Origin: Escherichia coli
Lineage (GTDB): Bacteria > Pseudomonadota > Gammaproteobacteria > Enterobacterales > Enterobacteriaceae
NCBI RefSeq assembly: GCF_003334335.1
Contig: NZ_QOWQ01000098.1
Length of the DNA stretch: 1,853 nucleotides
Strand: one strand, 5' to 3'
Shown: positions 1 through 1,853 of the stretch, piece by piece
How positions within the stretch are numbered: position 1 is the stretch's first letter
How the letters are laid out: every line of letters begins with the position of its first letter
The notes under the pieces: model-generated
What the model saw: only the letters and a program-made list of their open reading frames with translations
What the model was told of the DNA's origin: nothing
Database searches by the model: none
Program-made: the position numbers and the translations under genes

Positions 1-631
1 GTGGTCCGGGTGGTCCGGCCTCTCCACGTGGGCCGGTGTCACCTTTCGGCCCCGGCGGTCCGCCCGGGTCACCTTTATCGCCCTTCGGTCCCTGTGGACC
101 TGTTTCTCCCCGTTCTCCCTTTGGCCCCGGCTCACCTTTTGGTCCGACCGCCCCCGTTGCCCCGGCTGGTCCCTGTGCCCCTGTGGCACCCTGTGGACCT
201 GTGTCCCCCTTCTCGCCCGCCGGTCCCCGGGCATTCTCTGCCCGTTTCTTCGCTTCCTCTGCACTCGCCGCCGACGCTTCAGCACGCTTCAGGATTTCCG
301 CTGCCACCGCTTCCAGCTCTGCAAGCGCTTTCGGGTAATACTGCGCCTCATCCTGTTCCATCAGAAATTTATTCAGCGTTCCCGGCTCAGAATCCGCCTT
401 CACCAGAATGTCACCCACATACGACGGGGCGTACCCTTCCGTGTTCAGCGTCACCCGGTACCACCCCGGCTCCACATCAAAACTGTAACTGCCGGTTTCC
501 CCCGGCTGCCCCTGCGCCACCGTGGTGACTATCACTGTCTCTGTGGTGCGTCGCGCTTTCAGCTCTATGGTGCATCCCGGCACCGGCTTCCCGGTGCCGT
601 CCTTCAGCACGCCCGATATTCTGACTGTCAT
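1..631 (-). CDS. stf: Side tail fibre protein, Stf-like N-terminal domain followed by collagen-like Gly-X-Y repeats; partial, 3' end runs off the window start
   Basis: The minus-strand frame (plus-strand triplets starting at position 2) is open from the ATG at 629-631 to the window edge; I checked every plus triplet in that frame for tta/cta/tca and found none. GGGAGA lies 5 nt upstream of the ATG. The translation [28 protein letters not shown]... matches, from memory, the N-terminus of lambda Stf ([17 protein letters not shown]...). Residues ~136-210 are Gly-X-Y triplets ([55 protein letters not shown]...). It is absent from the supplied ORF track, probably because it has no in-window stop. 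Confidence 0.8.
2..226 (-). repeat. Collagen-like Gly-X-Y triplet-repeat coding region within the stf-like gene
   Basis: Nineteen consecutive G-X-Y triplets from residue 136 (plus ~226) are followed by a 1-residue register shift and then more triplets to the window edge. Very GC-rich DNA (hand count 45/60 G+C over 1-60). A 14-bp exact direct repeat CCCTGTGGACCTGT occurs at 90-103 and 189-202. The proline-rich plus-strand ORFs 1..528 and 36..338 are the antisense shadow of these Gly/Pro codons. Confidence 0.8.
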
Positions 632-636
632 AGATT

Positions 637-642
637 TCTCCC
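637..642 (-). promoter_or_regulatory. Shine-Dalgarno sequence for the stf-like gene
   Basis: Plus-strand tctccc at 637-642 reads GGGAGA on the minus strand, separated by a 5-nt spacer (AATCT) from the ATG at 629-631. Confidence 0.6.
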
Positions 643-644
643 AT

Positions 645-677
645 AAAAAAAACCGCAGTACCGGTTACCCGGTCTGC
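645..677 (-). terminator. Intrinsic-terminator-like hairpin plus T8 tract between J and stf, on the coding (minus) strand
   Basis: The minus strand reads GCAGACCGG-GTAA-CCGGTACTGC (9-bp GC-rich stem with a 1-nt bulge and a 4-nt loop; plus coordinates 655-677), then GG, then TTTTTTTT (plus-strand A8 at 645-652). The T-run ends 13 nt before the stf ATG. Pairing was done by hand; no free energy was computed. Confidence 0.45.
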
Positions 678-713
678 GATCAGGGGTATAAATTGTGACT
701 GGCTGGTGTTAAA

Positions 714-737
714 GGGTGCCGTCAGTCAAAGGCACCC
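714..737. other. Inverted repeat / potential stem-loop in the J-stf spacer
   Basis: GGGTGCC (714-720) and GGCACCC (731-737) form a perfect 7-bp inverted repeat around a 10-nt loop. It is not followed by a convincing U-tract on either strand (the minus strand continues TTTAACACC). Confidence 0.25.
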
Positions 738-815
738 GTGGATAATGTACGATGTCCGGCTTTTGTCGTTTTCCGTCAATCACGAACAGATGGATGAAAC
801 CTCACTATCCACCTG

Positions 816-1853
816 TCACGATGCGGTATCAAAATCGTCTGTATAGGATTTCAGGTAAAACAGAACCGGGTCCGGGATCCGAATTTGACTCGTATCATGA
901 AGTATTGAACCACCCATGTAAAAAAGCACACCTGCTTCATACCTGAATGTAATTTCAACCCGCGCATCACCCTGTCCGGCAGGAATACCCCATGAGCCTG
1001 ACGCACTTCCGCCAACATCAGAATATACCGGCTCATATCTGCTGGCGTTTTTGGAAATCTGGACCTCCCGCTCCCCGGTTTTGACTTTGCCTGACCTGGC
1101 ATGAACGACAACTTTGTCATTTATCTTCATGATGAATTCACCTCTGGAAAAGGAATACGCCATAAGCATAAGCTTGCGATCAAACGGCATGTTGTCTTTC
1201 AGCAAAATCATTTTCTGAAAAGTCAGCTGGTTCTGAGTCATTACGCCCTGCCCCATATCAACCGTGTATCCCTTGACGATATCACCAATGATTCGGTCAG
1301 CGCTCATCGTTCCATTAATGGTGCAGTCTTCCGCAATCGTCACGTTATTCAGCGTACCGGAACTGGCACTGATATTCCCGCTGATATCGGCATTACGGGC
1401 CGTCAGCCTGCCGTCCGGCGTCAGGGAGAATGCCGGGGGATTGCCGCCGCTGGTAATGGTGGGGGCGGTGAGCGTCTTTATCAGCGCCTCATTGATAAAC
1501 GTCTGTCCCCCCTGCGTGACCAGTGCGGGTGTGGTATCACCATTCTCCGGATTAATGAATGCCACGCGGTCCGCTGCCAGCAGTATCTGGCTCTGCATCC
1601 CGTCAGGGGTGTTCTCAATACCGGCACCGATACCGGCAATATAGCGACGACCATCCTGCATCTGCTGTAGCTTCACCGCCCACATGCTGTTCAGGTCATT
1701 ATTTGTGTCCGTCTGCACACGCTGGATTTGCTGTATGGTGGCGTTCTGGTCCTCCAGCGTTTTACTGACCGTCTGCGTGATTTCATTGCGGGTTTCTGTG
1801 ATGGTGGTCTGCATTTCCGCCATCTCGTCCTTCAGCTGACTGTTGTCAATCTC
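816..1853 (-). CDS. J: Host specificity protein J (tail tip / central tail fibre), C-terminal portion; partial, 5' end lies beyond the window end
   Basis: The ORF track gives 816..1823 minus (335 aa) with the TGA stop at 816-818. The same frame stays open from 1824 to 1853 (…EIDNSQLKDE before the listed M), so the M at 1821-1823 is internal and not the true start. The translation contains MWAVKLQQMQDG, YIAGIGAGIENTPDGMQSQILLAADR, LTAPTITSGGNPPAFSLTPDG and NVTIAEDCTINGT, which I recognise as the conserved C-terminal third of lambda gpJ. The last ~151 aa diverge (see findings). Confidence 0.9.
   Translation of the reverse strand, partial: EIDNSQLKDEMAEMQTTITETRNEITQTVSKTLEDQNATIQQIQRVQTDTNNDLNSMWAVKLQQMQDGRRYIAGIGAGIENTPDGMQSQILLAADRVAFINPENGDTTPALVTQGGQTFINEALIKTLTAPTITSGGNPPAFSLTPDGRLTARNADISGNISASSGTLNNVTIAEDCTINGTMSADRIIGDIVKGYTVDMGQGVMTQNQLTFQKMILLKDNMPFDRKLMLMAYSFSRGEFIMKINDKVVVHARSGKVKTGEREVQISKNASRYEPVYSDVGGSASGSWGIPAGQGDARVEITFRYEAGVLFYMGGSILHDTSQIRIPDPVLFYLKSYTDDFDTAS

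Follow-up and report, generated by a model that had tools for sequence, protein, structure and literature searches.

A collagen-shafted side tail fibre gene next to J in an Escherichia coli prophage of the P-Eib group, with probable remains of a hok/sok cassette in the intervening spacer

Collagen-like proteins encoded by prophages of Escherichia coli have been sorted into the classes EPclA to EPclD (Ghosh et al. 2012, PMC3368898). Class EPclC includes the 479-aa protein listed as 'ECOR-9 ORF-401, P-EibA' together with ED1a proteins of 493 aa and 520 aa; its members are often without a long PCoil region and carry a C-terminus unrelated to PfC, and a collagen break motif, GxPGGPxG, is described in the same work. 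For the related protein EPclA, circular dichroism (CD), size-exclusion chromatography with multi-angle laser light scattering (SEC-MALLS) and electron microscopy (EM) showed a trimer with the CD signature of collagen and a stalk held between two globular ends (PMC3368898). We analysed a stretch of 1,853 nt of E. coli DNA (the window; contig NZ_QOWQ01000098.1) in which the 3' part of the tail-tip (central fibre) gene J is followed, after a spacer of 184 nt, by the beginning of a gene for a protein of this kind. Both genes lie on the minus strand, and all coordinates refer to the window. The window very probably spans the junction between J and the side-fibre gene in a lambda-like P-Eib-group prophage, with a collagen-shafted side fibre and a spacer made of the remains of a hok/sok cassette.

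Two further systems provide the background for this comparison. The side tail fibre Stf of Ur-lambda (orf-401 plus orf-314 in lambda PaPa) is known from a virion structure in which 12 copies of the domain formed by residues 1-91 encircle the gpV/gpM junction as a collar; each of the four trimeric fibres is fed by three of these domains through linkers of ~10 residues (PMC12617516). The coiled coil of Ur-lambda Stf begins at residue 102, and the protein has a coiled-coil shaft of ~290 residues and a gp37-like tip that binds OmpC (PMC12617516). In lambda, lom (an Ail/Lom outer-membrane protein gene) occupies the interval between J and stf, with the T-run of its downstream terminator abutting the Shine-Dalgarno (SD) sequence of the fibre gene, and tfa lies downstream of Stf. 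The other system comprises the hok/sok type I toxin-antitoxin loci, among them parB of plasmid R1 and hokW-sokW of prophage Sp5 (PMC8621323).

The fibre part of the window consists of the following features.

629..642, minus strand: SD sequence GGGAG (642-638) and fibre start codon ATG (631-629), read directly from the sequence
359..631, minus strand: Stf-type N-terminal collar domain, residues 1-91, from the matches to PF08400 and PDB entry 9e7m
227..358, minus strand: linker (residues 92-101) and Ala/Glu/Lys-rich segment (residues 102-135), aligned with lambda Stf residues 92-129 and lying inside PF08400
2..226, minus strand: start of the collagen-like region, residues 136-210, from PF01391 and the triplets; the gene runs on past the window

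The 210 codons from the ATG to the edge of the window form an open frame with no defect. The first-pass annotation, which was made from the letters alone, had recognized an Stf-like N-terminal domain and presumed it to serve in virion attachment, and the similarity is indeed highly significant. Pfam PF08400 (phage_tail_N, 'prophage tail fibre N-terminal') covers residues 1-134 with the complete model (1-134/134, E 3e-43), and BLASTP against lambda orf-401/Stf returned 52% identity over residues 1-129 (E 1e-41), with no significant similarity beyond residue 129. The sole solved homologue of this N-terminus is the Stf chain of the Ur-lambda structure (PDB 9e7m, 94 residues), with which phmmer aligned residues 1-91 onto 1-91 (E 2e-30). 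Mapped on Ur-lambda in this way, residues 1-91 would form the collar domain that attaches the fibre to the virion, in keeping with the earlier presumption. Residues 92-101 would serve as a flexible linker and residues 102-135 as a short trimeric coiled coil; this latter, Ala/Glu/Lys-rich segment (~102-135), which falls within the linker previously placed at ~96-135, aligns inside PF08400 with the first part of the coiled coil of Stf. For the EPclC proteins the Ur-lambda structure offers a concrete attachment model, consisting of a twelve-copy collar and four trimeric fibres.

Collagen-like G-X-Y repeats had been placed from about residue 136 onward, and the triplets do start at 136. Eighteen perfect triplets occupy residues 136-189, one extra glycine lies within GDPGGPPG (residues 187-194, window 73-50), and the G-X-Y pattern then resumes through residue 210 for at least six triplets. 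PF01391 (Collagen) also matches the window fibre. Antisense to this region, the plus strand holds a Pro-rich open reading frame (ORF) of 175 aa (window 1-528), which we regard not as a gene but as a consequence of the GGN-CCN periodicity of the codons; weak tandem periodicities of 8-10 nt at 150-208 have the same cause.

The architecture of the full-length fibre was read from relatives, the window itself covering residues 1-210 only. The window is 99.7% identical to the prophage of E. coli G1/2 (locus L001 in our numbering), 99.5% identical to locus L011, and 98-99.5% identical both to ~28 further complete genomes and to the records of phages PhiR12_1 to _5; no match reached 100%. These last are complete-genome phage records with the same junction and with E. 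coli K-12 or E. coli C in their host fields; a literature search on the PhiR12 phages found no relevant paper. The gene order in G1/2 is J, the 184-nt gap, a fibre gene of 496 aa, a DUF4376 gene, a gene with a YadA C-terminal domain (Eib-type) and a SPATE-type autotransporter gene. RefSeq names the 496-aa product 'prophage tail fiber N-terminal domain-containing protein', and Pfam divides it into PF08400 (1-134), Collagen (139-249), Phage_fiber_2 (PF03406, 260-301) and a second Collagen match (311-403). Its C-terminal ~85 residues gave no match in Pfam, PF06820 included, or in the PDB.

The fibre gene lies 3' of J on the same strand, and the whole tail operon is visible in the G1/2 prophage and in PhiR12_2 (L002). 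All complete loci carrying the fibre have an intact ORF (493, 496, 517, 520 or 523 aa), and the length differences, which lie in the collagen parts, are multiples of 3 residues. Among loci with the 184-nt junction, the ORF is intact in L001, L002, L007, L008, L010, L011 and L014, in a range of 488-520 aa, and it is also intact in relatives with lom- or hok-type junctions. PHROGs groups the gene after the fibre with tail fibre proteins; the DUF4376 gene downstream of the fibre had no NCBIfam match.

Several observations concern the region beyond these genes. The fibre and DUF4376 genes are followed by genes for an Eib-type YadA-like trimeric autotransporter and a SPATE-type autotransporter (L001:12778-18842; P-EibA, L004:3918-9939). 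In G1/2 the SPATE-type gene is broken into two ORFs, one for the S6 peptidase and another for the beta-barrel; its P-EibA counterpart is a single gene, eaaA. Directly past the fibre gene of PhiR12_2 (L002:10978-13259) there is a transposase with an ATP-binding helper, a pair resembling an insertion sequence (IS); small ORFs noted as 'tail fibers' flank this element, which may interrupt a gene of the DUF4376 type.

Judged by its sequence, the fibre appears to be of a type already known, namely the EPclC class of the P-Eib-type prophages of E. coli. From 27 nt 5' of the ATG to the window end, the DNA shares 99% identity with the 'ORF-401-like' gene of P-EibA (ECOR-9, AF151091), and the full-length G1/2 protein is near-identical to P-EibA ORF-401 through residue ~335. 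As in EPclC, G-X-Y begins at residue 136 directly after the PF08400 match, with no long PCoil, and GDPGGPPG at 187-194 corresponds to the described break motif. The Pro-rich G-X-Y runs (18 triplets, then at least six) and the PF01391 match identify the shaft as collagen-like. The remaining EPclC traits, two collagen regions around a Pf2 repeat and a C-terminus other than PfC, are seen beyond the window in the 99.7%-identical G1/2 locus. P-EibA ORF-401 was sequenced in 2000, and the class was sorted and partly characterised in 2012; with both the fibre class and the prophage group already described, the feature is ordinary and matters little.

The likenesses to the reference systems nevertheless have limits. 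P-EibA ORF-401 has the same succession of PfN, collagen with a GxPGGPxG break, Pf2, collagen and a non-PfC tip as the full-length G1/2 protein, followed by ORF-191A/DUF4376 and eib, but P-EibA carries lom between J and the fibre and another J C-terminus, and the second collagen region and tip of the G1/2 type differ from those of ORF-401. Ur-lambda Stf shares the collar, the linker, the start of the coiled coil, the position after J, the Pf2 repeat and the terminator and SD directly upstream; in place of its long shaft and OmpC-binding tip, the fibre described here has a coiled coil of ~34 residues, a collagen shaft and an unrelated tip. The traits of lambda Stf proper (the gp37-like, OmpC-binding type) are lacking, as the fibre has no long Ala/Ser-rich coiled coil, no gp37-like tip and no lambda-type Tfa. 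The earlier remark that the shaft differs from that of lambda is therefore correct, the contrast being between collagen and an Ala/Ser-rich coiled coil, and this difference is already in the literature. EPclA and EPclB of O157:H7 prophages (ECs2717, Z1483) share PfN and a collagen triple-helix shaft, but they own a PCoil of 109-116 residues and a PfC (PF06820) tip, both of which are missing here.

From these comparisons, the gene would encode a trimeric side tail fibre in which the 10-residue linker and the ~34-residue coiled coil lead into a collagen triple helix in place of the long coiled-coil shaft of lambda. At full length the shaft would comprise two collagen rods joined by the Pf2 repeat and end in a small tip of ~85 residues, with the DUF4376 gene next. 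Such a fibre probably makes reversible adsorption faster, ahead of the binding of J to a receptor of its own. Its location in the virion, its copy number, its trimeric state and its role in adsorption are thus all predicted features.

The interval between J and the fibre gene was compared with that of related loci, for which purpose it was classified in the 80 IMG/VR loci nearest to the fibre N-terminal domain; these loci are not independent of one another, several coming from the same genome. Lom was present in 34 loci and a hok-like ORF in 33 (29 with a full-length 46-aa match and four shortened), while eight had the same 184-nt spacer, four were otherwise rearranged and one was without upstream sequence. 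A J-fibre junction without lom is common among the relatives, and lom is clearly only one option. This slot has at least two alternative cargoes, with hok/sok about as frequent as lom among the closest relatives. In some loci the region is disrupted: J breaks off at about residue 250 in L068, L070 and L072 and is there joined to the region of the lom terminator, and in L057 foreign, possibly IS-derived DNA appears to abut the fibre start, as judged by eye.

In the lom-type relatives P-EibA and PhiR5_1 homology to the window begins exactly at the T-run before the fibre SD, and in hok-type relatives it reaches 20 nt further upstream, through the shared terminator. The T-run and the adjoining ATGGGRGAAATCYATG block are conserved across lom-type, hok-type and relic-type loci (the last being those with the 184-nt spacer). 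In lambda and in the lom-type, hok-type and relic-type loci (window 645-652; L003, L004, L005) the terminator T-run abuts the fibre SD; the terminator stems of lambda and the lom-type loci, however, are unrelated to the relic- and hok-type stem. A terminator and SD precede the fibre in lambda too, but there lom is present. The alignments point to the T-run as the recombination boundary of the slot, which is bounded by the variable end of J on one side and the terminator-SD block on the other.

Within the spacer the following features were recognized.

632..815, minus strand: spacer of 184 nt between the J stop and the fibre ATG
744..779, minus strand: putative remnant of the hok promoter, with -35 TTGACG (779-774) and -10 TACATT (749-744), from alignment with the intact hok spacer
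714..737, minus strand: hairpin GGGTGCC-TTTGACTGAC-GGCACCC with an N10 loop, from flank matches to the hok spacer
645..681, minus strand: intrinsic terminator with a 13-bp stem containing one bulge and a GUAA loop (681-651) and a U8 run (652-645), from a terminator scan

The J stop at 816, the 184-nt spacer and the fibre start at 631 given in the first-pass annotation all hold, on the minus strand, and its statement that no lom-like gene separates J from the fibre was borne out by six-frame tblastn of lambda Lom and P-EibA Lom against the window, with best E values of 1.8-2.5 that correspond to chance. It had also called the spacer non-coding, having found no credible ORF. This part stands: of the four small ORFs that reach into the spacer (24, 46, 58 and 64 aa), none has a significant PHROG or NCBIfam match or is annotated in any relative, and all were discounted; RefSeq annotates no gene in the spacer in 29/29 genomes. 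The sole listing for these ORFs was phrog_25552 at E 0.021, with no stretch passing, and no SD was noticed upstream of the 24-aa ORF. What has to be added is that the spacer appears to be a decayed hok/sok cassette.

The identity of this cassette is evident from the intact intervals of ~487 nt. Their 46-aa ORF, MSQKPLKTTVICITVVLIIWITHSSLCEFRFRIAGAEIAAFLQCKQ, matches Pfam HOK_GEF (PF01848) at E 2.5e-11 as well as NCBIfam Hok models, and the intact leader (L027) matches the Rfam sok family RF01794 with 63.5 bits (gathering score 59), the match starting at GGGUGCC. RefSeq annotates the order J, Hok/Gef family protein, fibre and DUF4376 in STEC434. These relatives carry a true hok/sok member in the J-fibre slot, whereas the window keeps the promoter-proximal and 3' flanks of such a locus and lacks a hok ORF, a sok match and, in the hok-derived part, a sigma-70-like promoter. 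Six-frame tblastn of Hok against the window gave no match at E<=10, and Rfam found no RF01794 match in the window (E<=1) or the spacer (E<=10), returning only SNORD33 and Chlorobi-RRM at chance level.

The flanks were aligned by a pairwise method with cheap long gaps and by BLAST, MAFFT with the hok-type spacers having misplaced the left flank. Spacer positions 32-98 align to cassette positions 15-74 with 73% identity, including a 7-nt gap (E 1e-8), and spacer positions 93-183 align to cassette positions 400-483 with 78% identity (E 2e-17). The two alignments are co-linear and overlap by the six bases GA(C/T)GGC, and neither flank score was reached in any of 2000 shuffles. The right flank was also recovered, at E 8e-12 to 1e-9, in a search of 5426 complete E. 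coli genomes (28 Gb). The hairpin at 737-714 marks the junction: here the initial 16 nt of the hok mRNA meet the complementary segment from its 3' part, and the fusion point lies in GACGGC (723-718). The terminator at 681-645 has a predicted fold of -22.4 kcal/mol (z -4.2, 0/200 shuffles), ends 13 nt before the fibre ATG and is also present as a hairpin in hok-type loci. The putative hok promoter is assigned by location, as it lies 5' to the point where the Rfam sok/hok model begins; its -35 and -10 are now 24 nt apart, compared with 17 nt in intact loci, because of a 7-nt insertion, and a promoter scan found no sigma-70-like site in the hok-derived part of the spacer.

Read together, these alignments suggest that the spacer is a deletion relic of a hok/sok cassette that has lost ~325 nt of its interior (sok, mok and hok). 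An internal deletion between GATGGC microhomologies would have removed these elements and left a crippled promoter, a hairpin composed of both mRNA ends, and the terminator. The hok relic would then be silent. The cassette has also decayed independently in L012 (3119-3501) and L018, where a 10-nt deletion in the hok N-terminus is accompanied by a deletion of ~100 nt between CCGGATAGC and CCGGATGGC. A second deletion ending at the same CCGGATGGC motif indicates that the cassette decays repeatedly, and since both deletions have the same right end, the 3' fold-back element may be a hotspot for such losses. Decay of a cassette in place explains structured 'spacers' in tail operons that are otherwise puzzling. 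The relic is our only addition to the known picture, in which prophage hok/sok loci such as hokW-sokW of Sp5 already had a place.

A number of points weigh against the interpretation of the window as the junction of a working collagen-shafted fibre gene with a hok/sok relic. The hok flanks are only 73-78% identical to the available intact alleles, the left flank is significant in pairwise comparison only and not database-wide, and the hok promoter is a putative one, placed by position. The 5426 complete genomes contained no closer intact hok ancestor: after the 29 loci of identical type the next matches are at ~79% and cover the right half only. With no near-identical intact ancestor found, either the deletion is old or the parent allele is unsampled. 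As to the fibre, the window ends at residue 210, so that the intactness of the gene is known from relatives and not from this copy, and Ghosh et al. worked on recombinant protein only, not on virions (PMC3368898). Moreover, the prophage of G1/2, the closest genome, has frameshifted tape-measure (H) and L genes (L001:586-4835); these frameshifts and the RefSeq pseudogene flags make the G1/2 copy probably defective, and some carriers of this fibre are defective.

Among the alternatives, the one that survives best, though it is unlikely, regards the spacer not as debris but as a working RNA element, for instance a small RNA or an insulating attenuator by which the dosage of the fibre is set. Shuffled sequences fold less well than the spacer RNA (z -3.1), the terminator 13 nt before the fibre ATG is strong, and lambda and the lom-type loci place a terminator at exactly the same spot with a different hairpin. 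The spacer is also at least 97% conserved in 29 genomes, but its conservation equals that of the flanking genes and so carries no information on constraint. The Rfam matches are at chance level only, and the hok-derived part, with its -35 and -10 lying 24 nt apart, has no sigma-70-like promoter. A promoter-like site at 832-804 (TTGATA-17-GATAGT, across the J stop) was rejected, its 9/12 match being at chance level, with 2 such sites and an expectation of 1.2 from shuffles. The terminator itself is accounted for as the former end of the cassette, and by analogy with lambda it should be read through by antiterminated late transcription. Equally doubtful in our estimation is the broader proposal of a three-state slot (lom, hok/sok, relic) in which a terminator 13 nt before the fibre may be required to insulate or meter fibre expression, the relic, which is always accompanied by one particular non-lambda receptor-binding module of J, still acting as an RNA element.

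Slightly less likely again is an ancestral empty slot of 184 nt into which hok/sok or lom was inserted in other phages. Morons are gained as promoter-gene-terminator units, and both the limited identity of the flanks to hok-bearing loci and the lack of a near-identical intact allele would fit such an origin. A vacant site, however, would not contain both ends of a transcript, and the spacer keeps the -10 region and the terminator as well as, from the mRNA, the first 16 nt and the complementary 3' segment. It is this retention of both ends of a transcription unit that leads us to read the spacer as a deletion product and not as an empty ancestral site. The junction within a 6-nt direct repeat is what a deletion predicts, and the second, independent deletion at CCGGATGGC in L012 and L018 likewise speaks against an empty slot.

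The possibility that the fibre gene of the source genome is a truncated pseudogene remnant, which the first-pass annotation had raised, appears more improbable still. The window does stop at codon 210, and damaged relatives exist, as illustrated by the J-to-lom deletion in L068, the apparent IS at the fibre start in L057 and the frameshifted H and L genes of G1/2. The 210 codons in the window are nevertheless free of defects, all complete loci with the 184-nt junction have an intact gene, as do lom- and hok-type relatives, and the complete, near-identical relatives all carry the full gene of 493-523 aa, so that a short remnant is unsupported. Least probable of all is that the collagen-like protein is a surface or adhesion factor expressed by the lysogen, a moron like Eib: although it adjoins surface-protein genes (Eib, SPATE-type autotransporter) in relatives and Ghosh et al. 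raise possible roles in pathogenic strains (PMC3368898), its N-terminus is an Stf collar domain and not signal peptide-like, its gene lies in the tail operon on the strand of J, directly after J and before a gene filed with tail fibre proteins in PHROGs, and the upstream terminator together with the lack of a promoter-like site argues against independent expression.

On the other side of the slot, the window contains the end of J and a hairpin that follows it.

816..1853, minus strand: 3' part of J, 345 codons and the stop TGA (818-816), the frame being open from 1853 down to 819
786..816, minus strand: hairpin ACAGGTGGAT ... ATCCATCTGT directly after the J stop, without a U-run (fold -13.9 kcal/mol, z -2.8)

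Both NCBIfam lambda_TipJ (E 6e-93) and lambda gpJ chains in the PDB (E 2e-65) match the J fragment, which shares 49% identity with residues 822-1041 of lambda J. The similarity to lambda J stops after fragment residue ~236, and the last ~110 residues are unlike the LamB-binding end of lambda J; they constitute a receptor-binding module that differs from that of lambda and probably recognises a receptor other than LamB. DNA homology to the lom-type relatives P-EibA and PhiR5_1 ends ~173 codons before the J stop, at about window position 1335, and the GC content is 42-48% over the C-terminal module (~816-1300) and 57-61% on its 5' side (~1300-1700). The last ~170 codons of J (816-1335) therefore look like a swapped-in module. 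This module together with the relic occurs in 29 of the 5426 complete E. coli genomes, at 52 places and with up to 6 in one genome; every copy is complete, with an identity of at least 98.4%, and the module is joined to this fibre in 29/29 genomes. The hairpin at 786-816 has no homology to hok-type spacers and is best assigned to the J module and not to the hok-derived part. The alignment of the J fragment with the PDB entry 'A8 gpJ' (9wca) extends to fragment residue 297, further than the alignment with lambda J.

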